DNA of 64,000 bases from Candidatus Bathyarchaeia archaeon (GCA_049513715.1 JBEKVV010000001.1:384001-448000), one strand, 5' to 3'. Positions 1-28,842 are shown, counted from the first letter of the stretch. Translations and numbers: made by a program. Notes: a model not told the origin generated them from the sequence alone.

Positions 1-715
1 CTGTGTTGAAACTTGATTCCAAGTAAACAACGGCTACATTGTACCTCTCGTGGTCTAGGGGTAAGCCTTTGATTGTGCTGATTGGCAGCGTGATTTCGGA
101 GGCGAAGATTTCCCTTAGAACCGCCGTTGGAATCAATGAGTAGAAGGGCTGATCGTTGTTCTTTCTGCCTGCGAAGTCGAAACGGTAGTATTCAGCCGTG
201 GGATTTCTGGCTAAGTAGTCCTTGACCTGCTTCCATGTTTCCGCCTTGTTGAACTCCAAGAACTCCGAGCATCCCCAGGCGCTGTGAAGCATCAACTCGA
301 AAACTAAATTGTACGGTTTTCCAGCCGCGTTAGCGACCGCTTGCGCTTCCTCCCAACTCAGAAACCCCTTCCTATGCGCGGCTCTCTCCTCTCTACTCTT
401 CTGATGGCTTAGGCGATCTTGGGGAGGATAGAATCCGTTCGCTCGTAGGAAATTCCTAAACGCTAACAGCGCCTTATGTCGACCGGCTGCCGTCATGCCG
501 TTCGTGTTCTTGGCGTCGGTCCAAACTTGGTTAATGTCCGCTTTCGCTTTCAGAAGAACTTGTTCCGGTGTGAGATCCATGCCTTTCAGCAATCGACGCA
601 AATACGCGCGATAGTATTTCGCGCCATGTTCGCCGAGTTCTCCCGCTTGCAGTTTGTTCTGAATCCAGGTCTCAATCAGGTCGCTCAATTTGTTCTCCGT
701 ATTCCAAATAGGCAT
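1..715 (-). CDS. Tyrosine recombinase/integrase-like protein, truncated by window edge (not in ORF track)
   Basis: Hand translation from ATG at 715: MPIWNTENKLSDLIETW...YYRAYLRRLL...LSWEEAQAVANAAGKPYNLVFELMLHSAWGCSEF...FAGRKNNDQPFYSLIP..., open to position 1; aligns motif by motif with the 25576-26646 recombinase. Confidence 0.75.
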   Translation of the reverse strand, partial: MPIWNTENKLSDLIETWIQNKLQAGELGEHGAKYYRAYLRRLLKGMDLTPEQVLLKAKADINQVWTDAKNTNGMTAAGRHKALLAFRNFLRANGFYPPQDRLSHQKSREERAAHRKGFLSWEEAQAVANAAGKPYNLVFELMLHSAWGCSEFLEFNKAETWKQVKDYLARNPTAEYYRFDFAGRKNNDQPFYSLIPTAVLREIFASEITLPISTIKGLPLDHERYNVAVVYLESSFNT

Positions 716-776: not shown

Positions 777-822
777 ATAGGAATATTGCATTTGCAGTAC
801 AAATCTCTCAGTGAAGCGCGAA

Positions 823-2016
823 ATGAGCAAACCTCGAAGCCAATCAGAAGGCGCCGCGGCGTTGACCCACAGGCCAAGGTCGTTCCTGTTCACATCTGAA
901 AGCGTTACCGAAGGCCATCCGGACAAAGTGGCCGATCAGATTTCGGATGCCATCCTAGACGCCATTCTCGAAAAGGACCCGACGGCCAGGGTCGATATTG
1001 AAACGCTGATAATGAAAGGAACCGTCGTAGTCACCGGGCAAATATCAACCAAAACCTACGTAAACATGCCAGAGGTCGTCCGCAGTGTTCTACGAGACAT
1101 CGGGTTTGATGATGCGAAAGTAGGCCTCGACTGGGAAGCATGCGGTGTTCTCGTTTCCGTTGAGGAACAGTCGCCTGACATTGCAATGGGTATCGATAAG
1201 GAAGACATGGGGGCGGGCGATCAAGGCATGATGTTCGGCCATGCAACGAATGAAACCCCCCAACTAATGCCCTTGCCCATCGTGCTTGCCCACGGCCTCG
1301 TGAGGAGGTTAGCTGAGGTAAGGAAACAAAAGATTCTCCCTTACCTGCGCCCAGACGGGAAATCGCAGGTAACCGTGGAGTACGAGAACGACAAGCCGAA
1401 ACGAGTAGATGCTGTAGTGATCGCTGCTCAACACGACGAGAGCGTGTCCCGAGAACAACTGAAGAAAGACATTATCGACAAAGTCGTCAAAGAAGTTGTC
1501 CCGAAGAACATGCTCGACGACAAAACGAAATTCTTCGTCAACGAAACTGGAAGGTTCACGATAGGCGGCACTTTGGCTGACACGGGTCTGACGGGGCGAA
1601 AGATAATTGTTGATACGTATGGCGGAATTGGCAGCCATGGCGGCGGATGCTATTCCGGAAAGGACCCAACCAAAGTCGATCGGTCCGGAAGCTACATGGC
1701 ACGCTACATTGCAAAGAACATAGTTGCCGCAGGCCTAGCGGACAAATGCGACGTACAAGTAGCCTACGCCATAGGGGTCTCCAAACCCGTCTCAGTCATG
1801 GTAGATACGTACGGGACCGGAAAGGTGCCTGACGAAAGAATCACGGAGGCAGTAAAGAAAGTGTTCGACATGAGGCCAAAAGCAATTATCGAACAACTCA
1901 AACTGCGCAGGCCAATCTACAGGAAGACGGCCGTGTATGGACACTTTGGGCGGAACGATCCTGACTTTCTGTGGGAACGCACCGACAAGGCTGAAGAGTT
2001 AAGGAAGAACATCTAG
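823..2016 (+). CDS. metK: S-adenosylmethionine synthetase, bacterial/eukaryal type
   Basis: [30 protein letters not shown] and [11 protein letters not shown] motifs; start codon uncertain. Confidence 0.97.
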
Positions 2017-19597: not shown

Positions 19598-20236
19598 ATG
19601 CAAACAGCTCAAACTCAAAGACAGGAAGCAGGCTGGATTCCCAAAACCAAAGTCGGCCGAATGGTCCAGAGCGGACAAATCGTCTCGCTTGAAGACATTT
19701 TCACACAAGGATTGAAAATCAAGGAACCGGAAATAATCGACGTACTTCTCCCCGGCTTGAAGCAGGAAGTTCTCGGAATCGGTTTCGTTCAGAAACAAAC
19801 TGATGCTGGAGAAAAATCACGGTTCAAGGCGACTGTGGCTGTCGGAAACGGGACAGGTTTCCTCGGTGTTGGAGGCGGCAAAGCAAAGCAGGTAAGGAGC
19901 GCAATAGACAAAGCCACCATTGCAGCCAAACTGAACGTCGTACCGATTCGCCGCGGTTGCGGAAGTTGGGAATGCGGCTGCGGCCAACCCCACTCACTAC
20001 CATTCAAGGTGAGAGGAAAGACTGGCAGCGTTGCAATCGAGATAATCCCAGGCCCCAGAGGCTTAGGGCTAGTTGGCGGCGAAACACCCAAAACGATTCT
20101 GACACTTGCTGGTGTGAAGGACTGCTGGACCAGAAGCTTCGGGTCAACCAGCACACTTGGCTCGATGGCTCTCGCGGTCTATGAAGCGCTGCGCAACACC
20201 TACCGTGTCGTCACGCCAAAAGACTGGGTCGCGTAG
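19598..20236 (+). CDS. rps5: 30S ribosomal protein uS5
   Basis: WIPKTKVG, QKQTDAGE, RRGCGSWEC. Confidence 0.97.
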   Translation: MQTAQTQRQEAGWIPKTKVGRMVQSGQIVSLEDIFTQGLKIKEPEIIDVLLPGLKQEVLGIGFVQKQTDAGEKSRFKATVAVGNGTGFLGVGGGKAKQVRSAIDKATIAAKLNVVPIRRGCGSWECGCGQPHSLPFKVRGKTGSVAIEIIPGPRGLGLVGGETPKTILTLAGVKDCWTRSFGSTSTLGSMALAVYEALRNTYRVVTPKDWVA

Positions 20237-20262
20237 CACTAAGTTTCCCTTTTCATCCGAGC

Positions 20263-20291
20263 CTAGGCCGACCCCCCAGGGGGGGCCCTAG
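20263..20291. terminator. GC-rich hairpin between convergent rps5 and kbl
   Basis: CTAGGCCGACCCCCCAGGGGGGGCCCTAG imperfect inverted repeat. Confidence 0.4.
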
Positions 20292-21490
20292 ATTGCTTTG
20301 AGGGACTTTCCAACTTTCTCAAACGCTTTCAAGGCGAAGTCCAGGTCCTTCTTTGTGTGACCAGCGTTCATTATGGTTCTGATTCTGGCCTTATCACGTG
20401 CGACCATTGGGAAAACTATGGGCAGCGCAAAAACATTCTCGCCGAAGAGCATCTCACTCATCTTCCGCGCCGTCGAGCTCTCACCCACAATTACAGGTGT
20501 TATTGGTGTCTCACTGTTCCCGATGTTAAAGCCCAAGCCCCTGAGTCCCTCTTTGAAGTATCGAGTGTTTTCCCAAAGCTTTTGAAGATGAATTGGCTCA
20601 TCTTGAATGACGTCGAGGCTTGCCTTGCAAGATGCAACAACACTGGCAGGGTGAGATCCGCTCAGAAGCCAAGTTCTCGATTTGTTGAGTGCAAAATTCA
20701 CCAGGTCTCGGCTCCCCGCGATGTACCCGCCCACAACTCCAAACGCCTTCGAAAATGTCCCCATCTCAACATCAACTCTGCCATCGATGTGGTGGTGTGA
20801 TGTTATTCCTCGGCCCGCCTCGCCCAGTACGCCATCTCCGTGGGCATCGTCAATGTACGTCATAGCTCCGTGCTGCTCGGCAAGTTCAACGATCCTGTCT
20901 GCTGGGGCGATATCTCCGTCCATGCTGAAGACGCCGTCTGTGACGATGAGAATGTGTTTGTAGCTCTTCTGCTCTGCCTCGTCGAGCACGTGCTTGAGGT
21001 CATCAGGGTTACAATGTTTGTAGACCGCGCGCTCTGCCCTGCTGAGGCGGACTCCGTCAATGATGCTGCCGTGGTTGAGTTCGTCACTAATGATTAGGTC
21101 ACCTTCACTAGCGAGTTGCGGGATGAGGCCTGCGTTGGTCGCGAACCCGGTTGAGTAGGCCAATGCAGCTTCAGTACGCTTGTACCTAGCCAAGGCCTCC
21201 TCTAGCTCAACGTGTGCGCTCATTGTTCCCGCTATTGGGCGAACTGAACCTGACCCTGCGCCATACTTCTCAATGGCTTCTAAGGCGGCCTTCTTCACCT
21301 TAGGATGATTCGTAAGGTTCAGGTAATTGTTCGAGCATAGCATCATGACCTTCTTTTCAGAAACCACAGTCCAAGGGCCACTGTTGCTGGCCAGAACACG
21401 GATACGCCAATCAAGGTCCTGGGCTGCCAACCGGTCGTATTCTTCGCGGAGAAATGAACGCGGGTCTCTCTTGGTAGTATGAGCGGTCAA
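20288..21490 (-). CDS. kbl: Glycine C-acetyltransferase (2-amino-3-ketobutyrate CoA ligase), PLP-dependent
   Basis: CSNNYLNL, SDELNHGSIIDG, DGVFSMDG, GTFSKAFG; divergent from tdh; start re-called at TTG 21490. Confidence 0.88.
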   Translation of the reverse strand: MTAHTTKRDPRSFLREEYDRLAAQDLDWRIRVLASNSGPWTVVSEKKVMMLCSNNYLNLTNHPKVKKAALEAIEKYGAGSGSVRPIAGTMSAHVELEEALARYKRTEAALAYSTGFATNAGLIPQLASEGDLIISDELNHGSIIDGVRLSRAERAVYKHCNPDDLKHVLDEAEQKSYKHILIVTDGVFSMDGDIAPADRIVELAEQHGAMTYIDDAHGDGVLGEAGRGITSHHHIDGRVDVEMGTFSKAFGVVGGYIAGSRDLVNFALNKSRTWLLSGSHPASVVASCKASLDVIQDEPIHLQKLWENTRYFKEGLRGLGFNIGNSETPITPVIVGESSTARKMSEMLFGENVFALPIVFPMVARDKARIRTIMNAGHTKKDLDFALKAFEKVGKSLKAI

Positions 21491-21599
21491 TAATCCAGAC
21501 CAAGCGGTGACTCCAAGACGGTGTGCATAATAGTTTTGCTTCTGGGTACCTCTCGCAAAACATAAAGGCGTCACGCTTGATACTCGCGCCGAGCCGATT

Positions 21600-22628
21600 G
21601 TGAAAGCATTTGCAAAGTTGCGCCCCGAACCGGGGCTGCAATTGATCGACGCGGAACGACCCAAAATCAGCGGGCACGATGTTCTCGTAAAAGTGAAGGT
21701 GACTTCTGTCTGCGGGACCGATTATCACATTTACAAATGGGATGAATGGGCACAAGCGCGCATCAAACCTCCTAGAATAATAGGTCACGAGTTTGCGGGA
21801 GAAGTGGTGGAAGTCGCGCCGGCAGTCGGCTCCTGCAAAGTGGGGGACATCGTTGTGGCAGAGAGCCATATCGGATGCGGAACTTGCTACCAATGCCGAA
21901 CCGGAAATTCTCACATTTGTGAGAAAGTCGCCATTCTCGGCGTCGATGTGGATGGTTGTTTCGCGGACTATGTGAAAGTACCCGCCAACAATGTATGGCC
22001 AGTTCCAAAAGAGGTCCCGCTGGAAACCGCCTCAGCTCTTGAGCCGCTCGGCAATGCAGTTCACGCCGCATTCGCAGCGGACATCGCGGGCAACGATGTC
22101 GTAATCTTTGGATGCGGCCCAGTCGGCCTTTCCGCTGTGGCCCTAGCGAGCATCTCAGGAGCGCTTTCGGTGACCGCGGTTGACATCAATGACTATCGCC
22201 TAAACCTAGCAGCGAAAATGGGCGCGTCGAAGACGATAAACTCGAAGAATACTGATCCGGTAGCCGAGATTCACAAAAATACTGAGGGCCGTGGGTCTGG
22301 TGTGGTGTTGGAGATGTCTGGAAACGAGACCGCCATTAGGGAAGCCTTTCGTGCGGTCAGGAATGGTGGGACAGTAATTCTATTCGGGATTCCATCTAGA
22401 GATGTTCAATTGAACATCGCGGACGACTTCATCTTCAAAGAAGCCCATGTCCAAGGCATTGTTGGACGTGAGATGTTCAAGACTTGGTACAGGCTTGAGG
22501 CTATATTGAAATCTGGAAAGTTGAACCTCAAACCTCTCATAACACATCGAATGCCCCTGAACCAACTTGAAGAAGCGATGAAACTAGTCGGTTCAGGAAA
22601 TTGCGGCAAAGTCGTGCTAACACCGTAG
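21600..22628 (+). CDS. tdh: L-threonine 3-dehydrogenase
   Basis: CGTDYHIYKWDEWAQARI, GHE, EPLGNAVH, GREMFKTWY. Confidence 0.93.
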   Translation: MKAFAKLRPEPGLQLIDAERPKISGHDVLVKVKVTSVCGTDYHIYKWDEWAQARIKPPRIIGHEFAGEVVEVAPAVGSCKVGDIVVAESHIGCGTCYQCRTGNSHICEKVAILGVDVDGCFADYVKVPANNVWPVPKEVPLETASALEPLGNAVHAAFAADIAGNDVVIFGCGPVGLSAVALASISGALSVTAVDINDYRLNLAAKMGASKTINSKNTDPVAEIHKNTEGRGSGVVLEMSGNETAIREAFRAVRNGGTVILFGIPSRDVQLNIADDFIFKEAHVQGIVGREMFKTWYRLEAILKSGKLNLKPLITHRMPLNQLEEAMKLVGSGNCGKVVLTP

Positions 22629-22642
22629 ACCGCGGATGCTGG

Positions 22643-22655
22643 AAACGTTTATTTT
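22643..22655 (+). repeat. attL-like direct repeat AAACGTTTATTTT
   Basis: Identical to 26866-26878; extends to 15/16 matches (AAACGTTTATTTT[A/G]AG). Confidence 0.75.
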
Positions 22656-22659
22656 AAGT

Positions 22660-22671
22660 TTACTTGTGTGC
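22660..22671. repeat. Left subterminal inverted repeat TTACTTGTGTGC
   Basis: Reverse complement matches 26849-26860 (GCACACCAGTAA) at 11/12. Confidence 0.65.
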
Positions 22672-22945
22672 CCTAAACCGTTCCAATCAGCTCATTTTGA
22701 GCCGACCCAAGGCGATTTTCGACAGACATCACAGGCGCATTACATGCGGAAACTGGCTGACCAACAAACGGGCTCCAGACAAGTCTAACGCCGCGGTACT
22801 CCATCGTATATTTGCACAACAGCCGGCTACCCGCCGGCAACCTAGAAATCAACCCTTTTCCAGACGTGCACGCCTCTAGCGCCATAAATTCACACCAAAT
22901 GCTTAACAGCAACGCCTTTCCCATCTCGCCTACAAGTCAGATCCC

Positions 22946-23761
22946 TTGGCCACGACCGACCAGACCTCCCGCATCCTTGCCATAATCCAACGGGAAATCG
23001 CATGCCATTACCCCGAATTGTTCAATCGAGCCTATCACGAATTGGGCATCCCCTCACGTGTCGTGAAATTTGCATCCTACGCGCTACAGGCCGAGGGAAG
23101 AGTCGAATCACGGACATTGCGGGCGAACGATGCCAAGCAAACAAGGGTCTCCTTCATCTATAGCCCGGACCATCCCAAAGACACAATTGATCAAATCATC
23201 GAGGAGAAAACACTACTTCTTGAACAACATTACAACCTCTCCGACATCATCGGCCAACATGGCGAACAACTAGTTGCCACGGCATGCTCGAACCTCGGAT
23301 ACACAGAAATCGAGATCCGCAAGGAAAAACACGGAAATGAAGACCTCGGCATAGCTAAACATGACATAGATGTTTTCTGCAAACATCCGAGTGGGAAGTA
23401 TTACCAATACATCGAAGTCAAGAACAGGCGCTATCCATTAGGCGAACCAGACGTAAACTCAGTACTGCAGACTACCCGTAGGGCAACTGCCCGGTGGAAG
23501 CTAGATTTACGACCGGCTGTCGTTACGAGGTTCACAACCGAAACAGCCGGCCAACTCGCCCAGCGGTTTGACTTGCCAATCGCACTATCACCAGGGGAGT
23601 TTGTACCTACCAGCCACAGGGTATTATATGAGACACTCAACTCTCGCCTCGATCTAGACATCGCCATCGCCGACACCCCGCCAACCCTTCTTACTCCTAG
23701 AATCCGGCAATACACTACAGACTACAAATACAGACAATCCGAGCAAAGTCCCACTAGCTGA
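22946..23761 (+). CDS. PD-(D/E)XK restriction-endonuclease-like protein
   Basis: GQHGEQLV ... HDIDVF ... YIEVKN catalytic motif. Confidence 0.75.
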   Translation: MATTDQTSRILAIIQREIACHYPELFNRAYHELGIPSRVVKFASYALQAEGRVESRTLRANDAKQTRVSFIYSPDHPKDTIDQIIEEKTLLLEQHYNLSDIIGQHGEQLVATACSNLGYTEIEIRKEKHGNEDLGIAKHDIDVFCKHPSGKYYQYIEVKNRRYPLGEPDVNSVLQTTRRATARWKLDLRPAVVTRFTTETAGQLAQRFDLPIALSPGEFVPTSHRVLYETLNSRLDLDIAIADTPPTLLTPRIRQYTTDYKYRQSEQSPTS

Positions 23762-23922
23762 CATGCTTGATACAACTTTTAGTCACAATCAGACGCCAGC
23801 ATCAGCCGCCGACCCCGTACTCTTCTCTTTCTCATCGGTTCTCCACGACACGAAGTTGCCCGTAACTAAGGAAGTCTCTGGAGACACACATCGAATAGTC
23901 GAGACCATGTCTCCCGTGTTCT

Positions 23923-24339
23923 CTAAGTCACTGTGAGCACAATTGAATTTGCTTGGAGCTTTGTGGTATCTTGAGTGTATTGTGGGCTCTCCCCCGAACA
24001 GAAGAATCCTCGACAAGACCAACCATCCAGTCTAATGTTTAACCATGGAGCGTCGCTGTAGCCTTGAATAAGCAGGTCGAGCTTGTAACTCGTCCCTGGT
24101 ACCGCGGCATCAGGAATCTTCACATGAAATGTGTATGGCTGTGGCAGAACAGGTGCAATTTCGTTGAATCTCAATACATTGTCAGTGACCAAGTTGACGG
24201 GATTGGAGAGCACCTCAAGTTTCAGATCATAGATCATAACTTTTGCGGTGAAGGTGATGTCGAGATTGATGGTCTGTCCCGGCTTCACGTGGACATATGA
24301 GATTCTGTATTCAACCTTCCAGTAGTTAGAGCTCAACAC
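23923..24339 (-). CDS. Hypothetical Ig-like beta-sandwich protein (possibly a fragment)
   Basis: VKPGQTINLDITF...FHVKIPDAAVPGTSYKLDLLI pattern; no signal peptide. Confidence 0.5.
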   Translation of the reverse strand: MLSSNYWKVEYRISYVHVKPGQTINLDITFTAKVMIYDLKLEVLSNPVNLVTDNVLRFNEIAPVLPQPYTFHVKIPDAAVPGTSYKLDLLIQGYSDAPWLNIRLDGWSCRGFFCSGESPQYTQDTTKLQANSIVLTVT

Positions 24340-24436
24340 GTATGATTGGCCTTCGTCAGCTGTTGCCGAACCGCTTCTTCGAGGCCCAGGAGCTTTTCGC
24401 GTGTGTCACGTTTCCGGGGTGCCTCACCGAACATGG

Positions 24437-24607
24437 TCATGGCAGGTCGCCGAGCTGGAAGTGGAATCGCAGGTCACAATGCTCGCACATGAGGACTAAC
24501 CAATACGGCTGGTCTGGTGAAGTCCAACCGGCTTTACGAGAGGTGGCCTTGAAGCCCGGCTGTGGTATGCCCGTCTCCAGCTTGACCCCGCTAGTTTCCT
24601 TTTCCAT
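24437..24607 (-). CDS. Small hypothetical protein with a CxxC motif (56 aa)
   Basis: Hand translation MEKETSGVKLETGIPQPGFKATSRKAGWTSPDQPYWLVLMCEHCDLRFHFQLGDLP. Confidence 0.35.
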   Translation of the reverse strand: MEKETSGVKLETGIPQPGFKATSRKAGWTSPDQPYWLVLMCEHCDLRFHFQLGDLP

Positions 24608-24779
24608 TTTTCTTTCTCACTTTTTCACTGCCGGAACATCGTGGGCCGCCTTCGTACCGGCTGCGAAGGCAACCGTCGTGACTCGTTAGAGTCCTATGAC
24701 CTGGAAGATTCTGGGTTCTCCGACCATTGTAAGACGAGCTGAGCCCAACGCGGTAAACGAGACACAACGTCTTGACTAC

Positions 24780-24896
24780 TCAACCGTTGACAAGTCTCCG
24801 GAGAATGGTTTCGAACGTGTCATCTTTCGATCCGAGTTTTGCTAGGTCGTCTCGGAGATGCTTTGACACTTGAATCGTCGTGGTGGTCTTCGACAT
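24780..24896 (-). CDS. Ribbon-helix-helix-like microprotein (38 aa, below ORF-track cutoff)
   Basis: MSKTTTTIQVSKHLRDDLAKLGSKDDTFETILRRLVNG: beta-strand TTIQV plus two helices. Confidence 0.7.
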   Translation of the reverse strand: MSKTTTTIQVSKHLRDDLAKLGSKDDTFETILRRLVNG

Positions 24897-24963
24897 GATT
24901 GATGTGGGCGTCGTAACCCCTATATTAGCCAGAGGCCTTTCAATATGACTAGGTCAGATACTT

Positions 24964-25533
24964 ATGGGGAGACGAGGGAAAGACTTTGAGCGAAACATTG
25001 ACTCCGTGATATGGGGGATTATTCGATCTCACATAACAGGAATCACCTTCGAGGACTCACTGAAGGAAGCCGAACACAAGATTGGAATCAGCAGGGACAC
25101 GTTCTCGCGACACCTCAATGGCCTCCGTGCCATAGGAGCAGTCAATCAGCAAGGGAACCTCTACTCTGTGTCAAAGGTGTGGGCGCTACAGGACGACTCA
25201 AGGCAACTACGCCAGCGGAATCTCTACCCCTACTTACTCGTCGCCGTTACATCGCTGACCCACCGTTATCTGGCATTGCTGCAAGCGATGATTGAGGCAC
25301 CTGACATCTCCAAGGCTCATGGTGAGGCTGATCGCTTTCTCAGGAATGTCGACGACTCCTACATTATGGAGTTTGCCCGTGGCGTCTGGAAATCTAGGGG
25401 TAACGTGCGACTGGAACCGCTGAGTGAAGATAACAGAAGTTTGACGCTAGAGTTTGTGAAAGCTCAACGTCCCAACAGAGGCGTGCGTGTTAGGGGCATC
25501 TCCGACCGACAAGCCAAGCGTAAGTCACCATAA
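24964..25533 (+). CDS. Winged-HTH domain protein
   Basis: GISRDTFSRHLNGLRAIGAV...NLYSV wHTH at the N-terminus. Confidence 0.65.
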   Translation: MGRRGKDFERNIDSVIWGIIRSHITGITFEDSLKEAEHKIGISRDTFSRHLNGLRAIGAVNQQGNLYSVSKVWALQDDSRQLRQRNLYPYLLVAVTSLTHRYLALLQAMIEAPDISKAHGEADRFLRNVDDSYIMEFARGVWKSRGNVRLEPLSEDNRSLTLEFVKAQRPNRGVRVRGISDRQAKRKSP

Positions 25534-25575
25534 CGCCTAGGCAAACAATATTGACTTGATGTGGGGTACACCCTG

Positions 25576-26646
25576 CTAGGTCTTCTGGAGCTGCTTCATC
25601 TTCCGCTTGATTACAGCGAGAACCTCCGGATCCTCAAACAGCCTGTCCATGTAGCTGTCCGGTTTCTTCCGGGCCTCTTCCTTCTCCTCAAGGCGGGTTA
25701 GTTTATCTCGGAGTTCCTCGACCTCTTCCTTTGTGGGGATTGTTGGCTTCCACAGTTTCCCAAGTTCCCTGGCCATGTATCGCTCGTCCAGGGTTTCTCT
25801 GCTGTAACCGTACCGGTCGGTGCCGTGGCCCATGCAGAACTCGCTGACCGCATAGGCCACTTCGGATTTGCCGCATTGACTTTTGAAGCTGGACCTCAGT
25901 TGATGTGGCCCTAGGCCGACCTGCCACAGTTTCACTTTCTTCGCTGCTCTCCTCCAAACATTCTGTAAGTCGTGGGCATCGATCAGTGTGCCTCCCCGGT
26001 CCTTGGAGAGCTTGGTCTTCATCGGAAACTCGGGCACGTGCTGCTTAGGTACCAAGGTGAAGAAGTCGTTCAACGTCGACTTCCTAGGCGAGAGAGCGAT
26101 TTTGATGTACGGTTTCTCGTTGTTTCGCTGCGTCTCGATCTTGCGTTGGATCTCAAGGGAGTTCTGGATCTCCGAGACCTCGTCCTCACCGAGACCGGAC
26201 CAGAGCATGAATTTGAAGAGGCTTCGGTAGGGTTCGTCGGTTTCCTGGATTATGGTGCTCGCGTTCTCCCAGGTTAGTTCAGGTTTGCTTCGGACACGTC
26301 GAACTCTGATCTTCCCGTTCACGTGCATGTCGACTTCATGAAACTCCAGGAAGCTGCGCAGCGCGTATTTCGTCAAGTGGGCGGCGTTCATGGAATGCTT
26401 GTAGATCTCTCCGAGTCTTCCTTTGACTTCTATCGCGGTTTCCCGGGGGTTCTGTTGGGCTCTCTTTAGGAAGCTGGCGGGATCCTCGTTCCCGAAGAAT
26501 CGCGTGAGGAAGATGACGTATTGGTTGCGGGTGCTTTCCTTGAGTTCTGTTCCTACGCCGTTCAGCCATGATTTGACCTCTGGGGTTGCAGAGAGCTTCG
26601 CGAGAGCCTCAGTCAACTTGCTGCGCCTCGCTTTGGATTTCGTCAA
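25576..26646 (-). CDS. Tyrosine recombinase/integrase (atypical box I)
   Basis: N-terminal core-binding region (ESTRNQY...LRSFLEF), SGLGEDEV, PRKS, GPHQLRSSF, MGH...RYGY, coiled-coil tail. Confidence 0.85.
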   Translation of the reverse strand: MTKSKARRSKLTEALAKLSATPEVKSWLNGVGTELKESTRNQYVIFLTRFFGNEDPASFLKRAQQNPRETAIEVKGRLGEIYKHSMNAAHLTKYALRSFLEFHEVDMHVNGKIRVRRVRSKPELTWENASTIIQETDEPYRSLFKFMLWSGLGEDEVSEIQNSLEIQRKIETQRNNEKPYIKIALSPRKSTLNDFFTLVPKQHVPEFPMKTKLSKDRGGTLIDAHDLQNVWRRAAKKVKLWQVGLGPHQLRSSFKSQCGKSEVAYAVSEFCMGHGTDRYGYSRETLDERYMARELGKLWKPTIPTKEEVEELRDKLTRLEEKEEARKKPDSYMDRLFEDPEVLAVIKRKMKQLQKT

Positions 26647-26836
26647 GTCGCGCTAGGCCGTCCTTGAATTTGCTTCCGTGGTTCTTGTGGCCGCATCTGC
26701 AGGTACAGCGAAACTTTTTAGCTGCGGCGCAGTTCCCGCTGCCGCAGTGGCAAGCAATGGGTAGAAGGTTGAGGTTAGGTTCAAGGTTCTCGACGGCGAA
26801 CAGTTCTCGCCAATCACGTTCGGTTACTCTCTCCAA
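26609..26836 (-). CDS. Cys/His-rich putative zinc-binding microprotein
   Basis: CHCGSGNCAAAKKFRCTCRCGHKNHG; overlaps the recombinase start by 38 bp. Confidence 0.65.
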   Translation of the reverse strand: MERVTERDWRELFAVENLEPNLNLLPIACHCGSGNCAAAKKFRCTCRCGHKNHGSKFKDGLARLDEIQSEAQQVD

Positions 26837-26848
26837 GTCATATTACCA

Positions 26849-26860
26849 GCACACCAGTAA
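26849..26860. repeat. Right subterminal inverted repeat GCACACCAGTAA
   Basis: Partner of 22660-22671. Confidence 0.65.
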
Positions 26861-26865
26861 TACAA

Positions 26866-26878
26866 AAACGTTTATTTT
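26866..26878 (+). repeat. attR-like direct repeat, also the probable BRE/TATA of rpl15
   Basis: AAACGTTTATTTT, 65 bp upstream of the rpl15 ATG. Confidence 0.75.
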
Positions 26879-26943: not shown

Positions 26944-27414
26944 ATGGCTACTAGACTCAGGAAAGGTCGGCATCTTAGAGGGTCCCGAACGCATGGTTGG
27001 GGGACCTCAGGCCAGCACAGGGCAAGTGGAATGCGCGGAGGGTTCGGCAACACGGGCCGTTACCGGCACAAACGGTCTCGACTAATCAGGAACAAGGAAT
27101 TTGTCCACATGCACTATGTTGGCAAGAAGGGCTTCCGGTCTGTCGCTGAGAAGAGACATGTGGGTACGGCACTGAAGACGTTGAACCTTTGGCAGCTCTC
27201 TGACATCGTCAACAAGTTGGTTGATGCAAAGAAGGCGCAAATGGAGAATCAGAAAGTCATAGTGGACTTGAGCCAGATGGGTTACAAGAAGCTTCTTGGG
27301 CCTGGCTCAATTTCCCGAGCAGTACAAGTGAAAGTAGATCATTGTTCTGAAAGTGCGGTTAAGAAAATCAAAGAAGCCGGCGGCGACGCCGTTCTCCCTA
27401 AACCTGTCAAGTGA
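26944..27414 (+). CDS. rpl15: 50S ribosomal protein uL15
   Basis: RGSRTHGWG, GKKGF, KLLGPG, KIKEAGG. Confidence 0.96.
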   Translation: MATRLRKGRHLRGSRTHGWGTSGQHRASGMRGGFGNTGRYRHKRSRLIRNKEFVHMHYVGKKGFRSVAEKRHVGTALKTLNLWQLSDIVNKLVDAKKAQMENQKVIVDLSQMGYKKLLGPGSISRAVQVKVDHCSESAVKKIKEAGGDAVLPKPVK

Positions 27415-27420
27415 AGTTGA

Positions 27421-28842
27421 ATGGTCCGTTTCATAGAGCTCTTCAAACCCATAGCCAGGTTTTTCCCCGACATTAAATCGCCGGAACGGAAAGTAGGCTT
27501 CAACGAGAAAATCTTCTGGACCGCGATGGCGCTCATAATTTACTTCGTAATGTCCCAAGTGCCCCTCTATGGGATTGGGAATGCAGGCCTGAATGACCCC
27601 CTGGGGTCGTTGAGGGTGATTTTCGCTTCAAACCGTGGGACACTGATGGAGCTTGGTATAGGCCCCATCGTCACGGCCGGGTTGATTCTGCAGGTTTTGG
27701 CAGGGTCCAAGATGGTTAACATTGATATGACTAATCCCGAGGACCGTTCGCTCTTCACGAGCGCAAGCAAGATACTCTCAGTGGTTATGACGATCTTCGA
27801 AGCCTCAGCATACATAATCGGCGGCACTTACGGCACACTTGCGGTTACAACGGAAATGATCATCATGCTCCAACTTGTGGGAGCGGGAATTGTGGTTCTT
27901 TTACTCGACGAACTCTTGCAAAAGGGCTGGGGACTTGGCAGCGGTATCAGCCTCTTCATTGCCGCTGGTGTCGCCGCCTCTATCTGGTGGGATTCAGTCG
28001 CACCGATGGGCCCAATGTCAGACGGAAAATACCTCGGCGCATTGGTGGCCTTCGGGCAGGGCTTGGCGAACAGGAGTGGCTCCATTACGAGCATCTTCTA
28101 CAGAACGGGAGGGCTTCCTGACATGGTTGCCTTCACAACCACCCTCGGTGTATTCGCAATCATCATCTACTTCAACGGAATGCGTGTCGAGATTCCTGTT
28201 TCGTATGCAAGGTACCGTGGCTTTCGCGGAAAGTTCCCCCTGAAGCTCTTCTACGTTTCGAACATACCCGTAATCTTCGCGGCCGCCCTTTTCGGAAACA
28301 TCTACTTCATCTCGCAAATCCTATGGCAGCGCTACAACAGTAGCAACTCAAACTTCTGGTTCAACCTGTTAGGCCAGTTCACAACCCAAGGGAACCAATA
28401 CCAACCATCCGGCGGGCTAGTGTACTATGTGGTCCCACCTAGGAGCCTTTCCTTAGCCATGGCGGACCCGCTCAGAGACATAATCTACCTGGTACTGCTC
28501 GTGATGGGTTGTGTCTTCTTCGCAGTCACATGGGTTGAGGTCGGCGGCATGGATTCAAGGACAGTCGCCAAGCAATTGCTCGACTCGGGAATGCAGATTG
28601 AAGGCTTCAGGCGCTCAGAAGTCCCCATAAGGCAAATGCTTCAGCGATACATTCCAACCGTCACGATCCTCGGTGGGATACTAATCGGACTGATTGCGGG
28701 CACCGCAGATTTTCTTGGAGCCTTTGGCTCCGGAACAGGAATACTGCTCACAGTCGGCATAATCGAACAGTACTACCAAATTTTCGTGCAAGAGCGAATA
28801 ACCGAACTCTACCCTGCTGCCAAGGGCTTCTTGGGTGGGTAA
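27421..28842 (+). CDS. secY: Preprotein translocase subunit SecY (Sec61 alpha)
   Basis: GTLMELGIGPIVTAG, GLGSGISLFIA, KLFYVSNIPVI, GTGILLTV. Confidence 0.98.
   Translation: MVRFIELFKPIARFFPDIKSPERKVGFNEKIFWTAMALIIYFVMSQVPLYGIGNAGLNDPLGSLRVIFASNRGTLMELGIGPIVTAGLILQVLAGSKMVNIDMTNPEDRSLFTSASKILSVVMTIFEASAYIIGGTYGTLAVTTEMIIMLQLVGAGIVVLLLDELLQKGWGLGSGISLFIAAGVAASIWWDSVAPMGPMSDGKYLGALVAFGQGLANRSGSITSIFYRTGGLPDMVAFTTTLGVFAIIIYFNGMRVEIPVSYARYRGFRGKFPLKLFYVSNIPVIFAAALFGNIYFISQILWQRYNSSNSNFWFNLLGQFTTQGNQYQPSGGLVYYVVPPRSLSLAMADPLRDIIYLVLLVMGCVFFAVTWVEVGGMDSRTVAKQLLDSGMQIEGFRRSEVPIRQMLQRYIPTVTILGGILIGLIAGTADFLGAFGSGTGILLTVGIIEQYYQIFVQERITELYPAAKGFLGG

Follow-up and report, generated by a model that had tools for sequence, protein, structure and literature searches.

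A cryptic integrated element with a divergent tyrosine recombinase at a BRE/TATA-like site upstream of rpl15 in a Bathyarchaeia archaeon

Introduction

In the genome of Candidatus Bathyarchaeia archaeon, a peat-dwelling member of the Bathyarchaeia, a block of genes separates tdh from the ribosomal protein gene rpl15 and is bordered on both sides by the same short sequence. This raises the question of what the block is, how it came to this position, and how the essential operon downstream can remain expressed. The window is the whole 64,000-nt stretch that was analysed (GCA_049513715.1, JBEKVV010000001.1:384001–448000); positions are counted from its first letter. An earlier annotation made without database searches (here termed the sequence-only reading) described the block as an integrative element that targets a promoter TATA box and resembles a tyrosine-recombinase transposon.

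The block and its borders

The block (positions 22656–26878) is 4,223 bp long with one repeat counted. Its borders and host flanks are as follows:

21600–22628, + strand: tdh (L-threonine 3-dehydrogenase), left host flank (NCBIfam PRK05396, E = 4e-132)
22643–22655, + strand: attL core, left 13-bp direct repeat, a host BRE/TATA-like block (sequence, genome count)
22660–22671, + strand: left inverted arm TTACTTGTGTGC, with GTGTG ending 15 nt past the core (sequence)
26843–26860, + strand: right arm, conserved TT(A/T)CC..CACAC, −23 to −12 relative to the core (attR junction comparison)
26866–26878, + strand: attR core, right repeat copy, a BRE/TATA-like block still ahead of rpl15 (sequence, genome count)
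26944–27414, + strand: host rpl15 (Pfam Ribosomal_L27A)
27421–28842, + strand: host secY (Pfam SecY)
Beyond secY: an adenylate-kinase-like gene, an EMC3-like gene and rpl34e (Pfam AAA_17, EMC3_TMCO1, Ribosomal_L34e)

The direct repeat AAACGTTTATTTT is exact between 22643–22655 and 26866–26878 (13/13), and when stretched to 16 nt it has 15/16 identity (repeat family D11). A count over both strands of the 2,793,248-bp genome gives two copies, both flanking the block; the computed expectation for any given 13-mer is ~0.08. Allowing one mismatch adds one site, elsewhere on C1. By itself the repeat is weak evidence, because about 0.3 chance pairs of 13-mers are expected in 6.5 kb (computed). It is judged real because its edges match the empty-site boundaries in relatives and the junction of 18 other elements, both described below. 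The left flank of the attL core also fits the host-type CCGG/CTGG context of empty sites.

The inverted arms were read directly off the sequence and are not among the 25 longest repeats listed. The 12-nt right arm GCACACCAGTAA (26849–26860, within the arm region given above) is complementary to TTACTTGTGTGC at 11/12 positions, in agreement with the earlier description. There are 65 nt between the end of the core and the rpl15 ATG (26944). GC content is ~0.49–0.55 both inside and outside the block and thus shows no contrast; GC skew is negative from 22600 to 24000. The element is present in a single copy in the 2.79-Mb genome. The locus lies inside contigs of 273–889 kb in independent assemblies, and copies identical to that of the window are found in four metagenome contigs. 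The host MAG has an estimated contamination of 8.8%.

Open reading frames of the element

22946–23761, + strand: 271-aa ORF with an N-terminal winged-helix and a PD-(D/E)xK nuclease-like domain (model, Foldseek)
23923–24339, − strand: 138-aa cargo ORF (no family match in Pfam, PHROGs or PADLOC)
24780–24896, − strand: 38-aa ORF, divergent from the 189-aa ORF (sub-threshold Pfam match)
24964–25533, + strand: 189-aa cargo ORF (weak HTH matches)
25576–26646, − strand: divergent tyrosine recombinase integrase, 356 aa, intact (residues, fold, NCBIfam)
26609–26836, − strand: 75-aa Cys/His-rich ORF, conserved integrase partner (tblastn, alignment)

The 356-aa open reading frame encodes a divergent tyrosine recombinase with a XerA/lambda-Int-like fold. 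Its sequence gives no Pfam match, even at E ≤ 10, and misses the PF00589 cut-off; a precomputed PF00589 match is found in one of 58 homologs. NCBIfam XerA_Arch matches with E = 2.5e-6 (27.3 bits, far under the cut-off of 220). An alignment of 25 sequences, down to 30% identity, shows R141, K189, H248, R251, H274 and Y281 to be invariant, and from their order and spacing these residues are assigned putative R-K-H-R-H-Y catalytic roles. The AlphaFold model (pLDDT 86) has the core-binding and catalytic domain fold, with archaeal XerA 4a8e as the top Foldseek match (E = 1e-6), followed by XerA 5hxy, Tn1549 Int, XerH, IntI and lambda Int. There are 28 PDB matches at E ≤ 0.001, and among the matches listed all are tyrosine recombinases; identity to the solved structures is only 12%–16%. 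The start at 26646 fits the aligned N-termini of homologs. The model also has a long C-terminal helical tail, and homologs reach 420–450 aa. The presence of a recombinase, proposed earlier, is thus borne out by a sub-threshold profile match, residues and fold.

The 75-aa ORF shares 38 nt with the start of the integrase ORF. It has no family match in Pfam, PHROGs or NCBIfam. By tblastn, 15 of the 19 rpl15-site groups described below, and also L034, carry it adjoining the integrase. In a 13-sequence alignment C36, C44 and H53 are invariant, and H30, C46, C48 and H50 are nearly so. This partner ORF may have a functional role.

The 271-aa ORF gives no match in Pfam, PHROGs, NCBIfam or PADLOC. Its model (pLDDT 89.7) is best matched by NucS/EndoMS 2vld and 5gke (E = 5e-5) and by AF1548 1y88. 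There are 27 homologs, one of them labelled at its source as a Holliday-junction-resolvase-like endonuclease; D142 and E157 are invariant and K159 nearly so. The 138-aa ORF is seen solely in the window-identical contigs. The 38-aa ORF, with a weak match to Pfam DUF7557 (E = 0.0015, below cut-off), is a possible small DNA-binding regulator. The 189-aa ORF is a possible winged-helix regulator; its HTH matches are at E of about 0.1 only and its atlas leads are all <0.9. As the earlier annotation had stated, no ORF of the block belongs to a replication, conjugation or virion family (Pfam and PHROGs profile searches).

Empty sites in related genomes

A comparison with related genomes for a tdh-rpl15 site having a single core had been set beforehand as the check on integration. 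tdh and rpl15 are adjacent in 12 congeneric genomes, with a gap of 72–217 bp. In 11 of these 12 loci the spacer was read (L020 was left out), and all 11 display a single copy of the core block. The window spacer, minus the block and one repeat, is 92 bp long, compared with 93–94 bp in the three closest congeners. Related genomes thus carry an empty site with a single core and with boundaries that fit the repeats, which upholds the view that the block is an integrated element and that att repeats mark its ends. In seven further congeneric loci a different gene replaces tdh and the core block is still single-copy; the seven regions taken upstream of these loci gave no integrase match.

Across 19 congeneric sequences, conservation in the spacer is highest at the att core and the 5 nt that follow it. 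The most conserved stretch is CCGGAAACGTTTAT(C/T)TTG(A/G)GCAC. At the core, GGAAACG is followed by TTTATTTT, and TTTAT.T and the GCA following it are invariant. This agrees with the earlier description of the core as a BRE/TATA-like block 65 bp upstream of rpl15.

An integrase family at one site

In 29 of 56 metagenome loci an integrase with 57%–100% identity to that of the window lies directly upstream of rpl15 and divergent from it. These 29 loci form 19 distinct groups, the window's included, with junction and orientation alike; relatives of the window integrase at this site have 57%–78% identity. rpl15 is absent from all 19 loci in which integrase identity is ≤50%. L065 (60% identity) has neither core nor rpl15 within 160 nt upstream of the integrase and may be an exception to the rpl15-site rule.

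Besides the window element, both ends are available for three elements of about 9.2, 9.5 and 10 kb (L050, L066 and L067). All three have the same 12–13 bp repeat, in the host's own variant, and tdh at the far side. The window element is the smallest seen within its family, and apart from the integrase and the Cys-rich ORF it has no gene content in common with any relative. Cargo across the family consists of primase-helicase replication modules, defence-like genes, or metabolic genes. For example, L054 has PrimPol-D5N-DUF5906 and a terminase-large-subunit-like gene, and the cargo of L050 includes a PrimPol protein. One family member carries a TFB-like gene. In a strain whose host flank is identical at 313/320 positions, another member of the family occupies this site; the contig concerned and one of the window-identical contigs come from a single metagenome.

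Architecture of the att site

Of 19 distinct attR junctions, 17 have CACAC at −16 to −12 relative to the core, and all 19 have T at −22 and C, A and C at −16 to −14. A GTGTG-like motif ends 15 nt to the right of the core in all four attL sites, with the variants GTATG and GCTGTG among L050, L066 and L067. From the CACAC/GTGTG spacings, the symmetry centre is placed between core nt 6 and 7. The attL core has a mismatch at position 10 in L066 and at position 13 in L067, and the attR of L048 and L061, which are in one host flank, differ at core position 2. The crossover can be bracketed by these mismatches at positions 2, 10 and 13. Strand exchange would most likely take place over a 6–7 bp overlap, from core position 3/4 to 9 around CGTTTA, i.e. 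at the BRE/TATA junction. Inverted integrase-binding arms, in which an A/T run lies on the inside and CACAC/GTGTG on the outside, would surround this overlap.

Proposed integration and present mobility

The element is a site-specific cryptic integrated element (CIE). It probably represents a small integrated element that entered by conservative site-specific recombination, carried out by its own divergent integrase, at a BRE/TATA-like attB upstream of rpl15. In the proposed process an attP on a circular element would recombine with one chromosomal attB, the conserved block ~65 nt upstream of rpl15, which heads an rpl15-secY-adk-rpl34e cluster, and the 13-bp identity segment would be doubled into attL and attR. 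Since the repeat includes the entire TATA and the larger part of the BRE, a complete promoter would be left before rpl15 at attR, and the essential operon would therefore stay expressed. This rescue would parallel that by tRNA-targeting elements, which rebuild the tRNA gene. Members of the family share the integrase, usually the small Cys-rich partner ORF, the arms and attB, with variable cargo; in the window element this cargo is the winged-helix/PD-(D/E)xK nuclease-like ORF plus putative regulators.

A further proposal, that the element gained a promoter at its own left end, finds no support in the layout of the genes near attL. In two of the four two-ended elements (L050 and L066) the cargo converges on attL, and in the window element and L067 the first co-directional ORF is about 290–390 nt away.

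The element may still be mobile. In four of four runs from this organism's population, judged from contigs alone, the integrated form was the only one found, with no joints. In the absence of a replication gene, the element may not persist after excision, or may be a decayed derivative. It could have entered site-specifically and now be an immobile deletion derivative of a larger (9–30 kb) element that persists as an islet. The integrated form in the four runs and the window-identical copies in four metagenome contigs are consistent with such a fixed remnant, as is its position as the smallest of the family, without the primase-helicase genes of L050 and L054. However, the integrase has its full length and retains every catalytic residue, the partner ORF is intact, the two cores match at 13/13, and neither arm is missing, although these features do not amount to proof of activity. 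We regard a fixed remnant as unlikely, though with a real share of the probability.

The core block as a putative promoter

rpl15 requires a promoter because kbl and tdh separate it from rps5, and kbl is on the opposite strand. The BRE/TATA consensus has an A/T-rich TATA octamer after a purine-rich BRE. By position, conservation and resemblance the core looks like such a promoter, and it would function as one for rpl15. TATA-like words are 5–15 times enriched upstream of ORFs in the genome, with low absolute numbers, and a similar conserved TTTATATT block is found 42 nt ahead of metK.

It is a doubtful extension that the integrase clade is specialised on core promoters of ribosomal-protein operons and that the core serves as its own integrase switch. 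A 38%-identical relative has the putative rpl40e promoter as its target, just downstream of the TATA. In the window, the operon of the Cys-rich ORF and integrase starts 29 nt from the core, with no other TATA-like sequence upstream of it. In the excised circle alone, an A-rich BRE-like flank on that strand would come from the left end of the element; attP would then drive the integrase, which would be turned off once host DNA replaces the flank upon integration. TBP/TFB bending could replace an IHF-type architectural factor.

Alternatively, the block may not be a promoter at all: the integrase would use a conserved A/T-rich sequence, such as the terminator of tdh or a leader or operator of rpl15, with rpl15 transcribed from farther upstream. 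No TATA motif emerged from a genome-wide de novo motif search, and T-runs, which can act as archaeal termination signals, could give the block this property. This alternative is improbable, as the block stays with rpl15 in the seven genomes where tdh is replaced, Rfam matches no known leader, and a like block precedes metK. The position of rpl15 behind kbl and tdh also calls for a promoter, and in the occupied state a 4.2–10 kb element with opposing genes lies upstream of an essential operon.

Satellite and transposon readings

The minimal element could also rely, in the manner of a satellite, on larger family members with primase-helicase or packaging genes for replication or transfer, having its integrase type and attB in common with them. 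The primase/terminase-like genes of L054, the PrimPol of L050 and the different family member in a co-occurring near-identical strain point in this direction. Against it, the window element and its relatives have only the integrase and the Cys-rich ORF in common, no capsid gene was identified, and no viral-contig relatives were found. We give this dependence a small probability.

A tyrosine-recombinase transposon with TATA boxes of any kind as its targets, duplicating each promoter hit, as suggested by the TATA-like core, the Tn1549 integrase among the structural matches, and the minimal element lacking replication, conjugation and virion genes, is very hard to reconcile with a single copy in 2.79 Mb, a core found nowhere else in the genome, 19 distinct relatives at one locus in one orientation, and a 12–13 bp identity repeat that follows the host variant with no variable coupling sequence. 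The element is considered site-specific, and not a general TATA-box transposon, because 19 family groups occupy one rpl15 site. The observation made in the sequence-only reading is confirmed and its interpretation is in part supported: the targeted site is BRE/TATA-like, but it is one attB and not TATA boxes in general, and neither the transposon nor the promoter gain at the left end stands.

Comparison with known systems

Thaumarchaeal CIEs are small archaeal elements of 2.6–98 kb, defined solely by an integrase and short direct repeats (down to 8 bp) and validated by empty sites in related genomes; 15 of 68 are intergenic (Krupovic et al. 2019, PMC6563490). The window element resembles them in its integrase gene near one end and its direct repeats on either side, and differs in its host, Bathyarchaeia instead of thaumarchaea. 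Neither "promoter" nor "TATA" appears as a word in the main text of that paper, and the window att sequence is absent from its Table S2. Unlike in the CIEs as described there, an entire clade of integrases here uses one attB, which falls on a BRE/TATA-like block.

According to a review (PMC8371274), pTN3-like Thermococcales integrases are "suicidal", with att inside int so that the gene is split. Their target is a tRNA gene, at its 5′ half, and after integration this gene relies on the integrase promoter for its expression. By this account the two systems are alike in having a site that touches the 5′ region of a host gene whose expression the element must secure; they differ in that int is intact here, att is outside it, and the putative host promoter itself is duplicated. 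An SSV/pTN3-type suicidal integrase was rejected, as int is intact (25576–26646) and its start is separated from the core by 219 nt.

The SNJ2 integrase of haloarchaeal pleolipoviruses, as described in PMC5861418, has a 14 bp core and a tRNA-Met target, and is co-transcribed with small overlapping upstream ORFs that are needed for integration and encode coiled-coil and MarR-like accessory proteins. Compared by description, the short core (13 bp here) and the small ORF overlapping the integrase are similar. The partner here is a Cys/His-rich 75-aa protein, in contrast, and the target is upstream of rpl15.

A Tn916/Tn1549-kind transposon was rejected on the grounds of one site, a fixed 12–13 bp identity segment and a single copy. 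Lambda Int and Xer share with the window integrase the catalytic residues, the two-domain fold, and inverted arms around a short overlap. The window integrase differs in its 12%–16% identity, the lack of a Pfam match and the long C-terminal helical tail.

Bacterial ICEs and IMEs found at ribosomal-protein genes use the 3′ ends of genes. Here too a conserved essential translation gene provides a stable docking site; in contrast to the bacterial 3′ ends, the site in this case appears to be an archaeal core promoter.

A single docking site between tdh and rpl15

The 4.2-kb block between tdh and rpl15 is bounded by an exact 13-nt direct repeat (the core; its two copies are termed attL and attR). 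The element and its flanking genes are arranged as follows.

19598–20236, rps5
20288–21664, minus strand, glycine C-acetyltransferase-like gene (kbl), left flank
21600–22628, L-threonine dehydrogenase gene (tdh), left flank
22643–22655, attL copy of the core
22660–22671, left inverted arm, 12 nt
25576–26646, minus strand, integrase open reading frame of 356 aa, a tyrosine recombinase by residues and fold
26609–26836, Cys/His-rich open reading frame of 75 aa, overlapping the integrase start by 38 nt
26849–26860, right inverted arm, 12 nt, complementary to the left arm at 11 of 12 positions
26866–26878, attR copy of the core
26944–27414, rpl15, right flank
27421–28842, secY, right flank

Downstream of secY there are an adenylate-kinase-like gene, an EMC3-like gene and then rpl34e. 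At positions 19598–22628, the genes after rps5 are kbl (minus strand) and tdh. Ribosomal-protein genes that usually cluster together are thus separated in this genus by a threonine-degradation pair, with rpl15 split from the rest.

The core 13-mer has exactly two occurrences in the genome (2,793,248 bp), one on each side of the block. The flanking repeat and the inverted arms described in the sequence-only reading are confirmed. That reading had proposed as its own test a search for an empty tdh-rpl15 site carrying one core. The rpl15 5′ region was used as a query against 40 relatives, and the same-genus rpl15 loci retrieved show about 67%–73% nucleotide identity to the window. In 12 of these, tdh is directly 5′ of rpl15 with a gap of 72–217 bp, and the core block is present once in each of the 11 spacers examined (the 12 loci minus L020). 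Seven other congener loci have a different gene in place of tdh, also with one block copy per spacer (7/7); six of these seven regions contain kbl, at a distance of about 1.3 kb, and none contains an integrase match. When the 4.2-kb block and one repeat are subtracted, the window spacer measures 92 bp; those of the three closest relatives are 93–94 bp. Judged against the empty sites, the bases to the left of the core at attL (CCGG/CTGG) and those to the right of the core at attR (G-A/G-GCAC) are of host type. Empty sites with a single core (attB) are thus present in congeners, and their boundaries match the repeats.

The integrase, its partner and the cargo

The 356-aa sequence has no match in Pfam or PHROGs, and its match to NCBIfam XerA is below threshold. 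A total of 58 integrase homologs were found, and residues R141, K189, H248, R251, H274 and Y281 are invariant in an alignment of 25 sequences. The predicted structure (pLDDT 86) displays matches to archaeal XerA, Tn1549 Int, XerH, IntI and lambda Int. Judged by these residues and the modelled fold, the open reading frame is a complete though divergent tyrosine recombinase.

The 75-aa Cys/His-rich open reading frame is kept beside the integrase in most relatives. It matches no known family, and its Protein Atlas leads are all below 0.9. The possibility that the 75-aa and 356-aa open reading frames are one gene broken by a frame shift was ruled out: the N-termini of homologs align with the start of the 356-aa sequence, longer homologs (420–450 aa) gain their length at the C-terminus, and the small open reading frame is conserved as a gene of its own. 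Many of the 420–450-aa members, e.g. P0010, P0011, P0013 and P0022, share a conserved C-terminal extension (ARNGGTP...PYET...LVPLLN...) that is missing from the window's integrase.

The remaining open reading frames of the element are:

271 aa, combining a winged helix with a PD-(D/E)xK nuclease-like domain; the best structural matches are NucS/EndoMS and AF1548
138 aa, function unassigned
189 aa, possible winged-helix regulator (a weak lead; Protein Atlas leads all below 0.9)
38 aa, weak DUF7557 match

PHROGs and PADLOC gave no match for the cargo open reading frames, and no replication, transfer or virion genes were found in the element with Pfam and PHROGs.

A family of elements at the rpl15 site

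A scan of metagenome contigs with the integrase returned 56 loci, and a scan of genome contigs a single locus. A family-wide genome search gave matches at E ≤ 1e-30 in 6 of 59 genomes, with a close match in one (G000) only. Viral contigs yielded 25 pattern matches, with no relative among them.

The layout at the rpl15 site is shared by 29 of the 56 loci, in 19 distinct groups (the window's own four contigs included). The integrase in these is 57%–100% identical to that of the window and is located directly upstream of rpl15 in divergent orientation; the position of the core and the orientation are the same throughout. Among the other 27 loci, six (identity of 57% or more) are partial or not long enough for a judgement, and L085 was left out of the check. 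rpl15 is absent from all 19 loci with an integrase identity of 50% or less. The sole possible exception is locus L065 (60% identity), where neither the core nor rpl15 is present in 160 nt of flank. A left-arm-like AGTCTTTCTATGC motif is found in the flank upstream of its integrase (positions 1–160 of L065).

In a quick version of an integrase tree, 18 rpl15-site integrases, three with short flanks and that of L065 form one clade (SH-aLRT 94); L066, which is at the rpl15 site, and L034 fall just outside. Duplicates (L040–43, L050, L056, L057, L068, L076, L037 and L074) and every locus with a match shorter than 230 residues were removed from this tree. L065 may have a different target or represent an excised form.

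Besides the window's element, three have both ends known: L050 (~9.2 kb), L067 (~9.5 kb) and L066 (~10 kb). In each, tdh is on the far side, and the 12–13 bp repeat follows the variant of the block that the host itself has. The integrase and the Cys-rich open reading frame are the only genes of the window that recur in another element. The cargo of relatives includes PrimPol or PrimPol-D5N-DUF5906 replication proteins (L050, L054), a terminase-like gene (L054), peptidases (L044), and, at the rpl15 site, a TFIIB-repeat protein with ATPases (L052) and a defence-like set of SIR2_2, HEPN, HNH and Schlafen/AlbA_2 domain genes (L067, 8406–14551). Thus, of the members seen, the window element is the smallest and the most reduced in content.

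The TFIIB-repeat protein of L052 (5211–6569, 452 aa, Pfam E-value = 6e-12) is TFB-like; a TFB-like gene is thereby carried by an element whose att core resembles a BRE/TATA sequence.

The sequence-only reading had described a minimal integrative element that resembles a tyrosine-recombinase transposon and appears to target a TATA box. An integrative element located in a BRE/TATA-like, predicted promoter block is retained from it, and empty sites were found. The analogy to a transposon gives way to site-specific integration at an attB common to the clade; a search across the whole genome showed no second copy of the 4.2-kb block.

Att architecture and the predicted crossover

In 17 of 19 attR junctions the sequence CACAC is present at −16 to −12 relative to the core, and the bases preceding it (TT-A/T-CC) are almost fixed across all 19. 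A GTGTG-like motif ends 15 nt past the core in all four attL junctions. The arm symmetry is centred between core nucleotides 6 and 7.

Three mismatches are informative. The attL of L066 differs from the host type at core position 10, that of L067 differs at position 13, and L048 and L061, which have identical host flanks, differ at position 2 of attR. These bracket the crossover, and the strand-exchange overlap would be 6–7 bp at about core positions 3/4 to 9, a placement that mutations after integration could upset. The overlap so placed coincides with the boundary between the purine-rich and TATA-like parts of the block.

The core as a predicted promoter

The core is the best-conserved part of the spacer among 19 congeneric sequences, and the block remains with rpl15 where the upstream gene differs. 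In form it resembles a purine-rich BRE followed by a T/A octamer, the consensus arrangement of an archaeal promoter. Word-enrichment counts show TATA-like words to be 5–15 times enriched upstream of open reading frames in the window's genome, and metK is preceded by a similar conserved block. De novo motif discovery (Gibbs sampling) recovered no TATA motif, and Rfam gave nothing relevant; a sigma-70 and terminator scan was at chance level, these models being inapplicable to archaea. On balance, it is likely that the att core is the promoter of rpl15.

The essential operon behind the core tolerates 4–10 kb of foreign DNA upstream, which also speaks for a promoter in the core. At attR only two bases before the repeat are altered (GG to AA), which leaves rpl15 with its predicted promoter essentially restored; duplication of the promoter would explain why the insertion is tolerated. 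The attL copy of the core points into the element, and the gain of a promoter at the left end had been suggested from sequence. This part is not upheld, as use of attL is inconsistent: genes near attL converge on this copy in L050 and L066, and the nearest open reading frames that read in its direction start about 290–390 nt from it in the window and L067.

Presence in natural populations

The window stretch is present in 24 wetland/peat runs, with no RNA run listed among them. Contigs from 4 of the 24 display the integrated form only, with no joints, a contig-level result that carries no weight against an excised circle or an empty site. One metagenome contains both L041, a contig identical to the window, and L044, whose host flank is identical to that of the window at 313 of 320 positions. 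The family member in L044 is a different one: its integrase is 78% identical, and its cargo (>8.8 kb) is unrelated. Such a pair suggests that the rpl15 site undergoes turnover in natural populations. At least six contigs end within 131 nt past the core, a weak hint that is consistent with an assembly branch point.

Other docking sites

Genome G013 of the same genus (L034; also L037) encodes an integrase of 38% identity together with the same Cys-rich partner. Its 7.4-kb element (L034, 9695–17095) is inserted at the rpl40e promoter, with an 11-bp repeat just downstream of the host TATA. The corresponding empty rpl40e site is present in the window's genome (contig C2, near position 129000). The L034 element itself provides a TATA-like sequence at its gene-proximal junction.

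More distant integrase relatives adjoin a tRNA gene or, at its 3′ end, a CoA-ligase gene, and further distant ones are found downstream of rpl34e or of a RIO kinase gene. Thus promoter docking appears as a trait of the clade around the window's integrase and not of the whole superfamily. Two loci downstream of rpl34e, L039 (contig C10 of genome G004) and L070, have integrases with 36%–40% identity. They are at the 3′ end of the rpl15-secY-adk-rpl34e cluster; therefore both ends of the operon dock elements, in different genomes.

Window positions 1–715 (minus strand) encode the 5′ portion of a distant paralog of the integrase (23%–28% identity), divergent from metK (811–2016, plus strand) across a 95-nt spacer. 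Homology with five congeneric genomes begins about 22–31 nt into this spacer. A conserved TTTATATT block follows roughly 30 nt further downstream, 42 nt before the metK start. The paralog adjoins the metK promoter, yet is outside its TATA; the att cores at rpl15 and rpl40e, by comparison, overlap conserved blocks upstream of their host genes. It probably belongs to another integrated element that abuts a promoter and extends to the left of the window.

Comparison with known systems

The archaeal integrases characterised mainly target tRNA genes (PMC8371274). Among 68 thaumarchaeal elements with defined sites, 39 are in tRNA genes, 15 are intergenic and 14 are at gene 3′ ends; the shortest repeats measure 8 bp, and cryptic elements range from 2.6 to 98 kb (Krupovic et al. 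2019, PMC6563490). Intergenic targets were thus catalogued before, but in the available parts of that paper they are not linked to a functional element: neither “promoter” nor “TATA” is used in its main text, and the window's core is missing from Table S2. “TATA” is likewise absent from the accessible text of the review (PMC8371274), which does describe pTN3-type enzymes, with the integrase promoter driving expression of the recombinant tRNA gene. Integrases are mentioned in a paper on Bathyarchaeia viruses, whose accessible part describes no att sites (PMC10848311). In a literature search on promoters or TATA boxes as targets of archaeal integration or of tyrosine recombinases, no such attB was found, which is not proof of absence.

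The SNJ2 integrase, whose operon also encodes small accessory proteins (PMC5861418), offers a likeness to the integrase and partner open reading frame described here. An attB/attP of about 45 bp, together with the compact integrase and this small partner, represents a candidate archaeal site-specific recombination system, and Bathyarchaeia gain a first defined integrative-element family whose att architecture is defined. Should the core govern expression of the integrase as well, transcription-factor binding and recombination would be directly tied. One attB serves the whole integrase clade and coincides with the predicted core promoter of an essential operon. The idea of a self-restoring, conserved and essential docking site may thereby be widened from tRNA genes to promoters.
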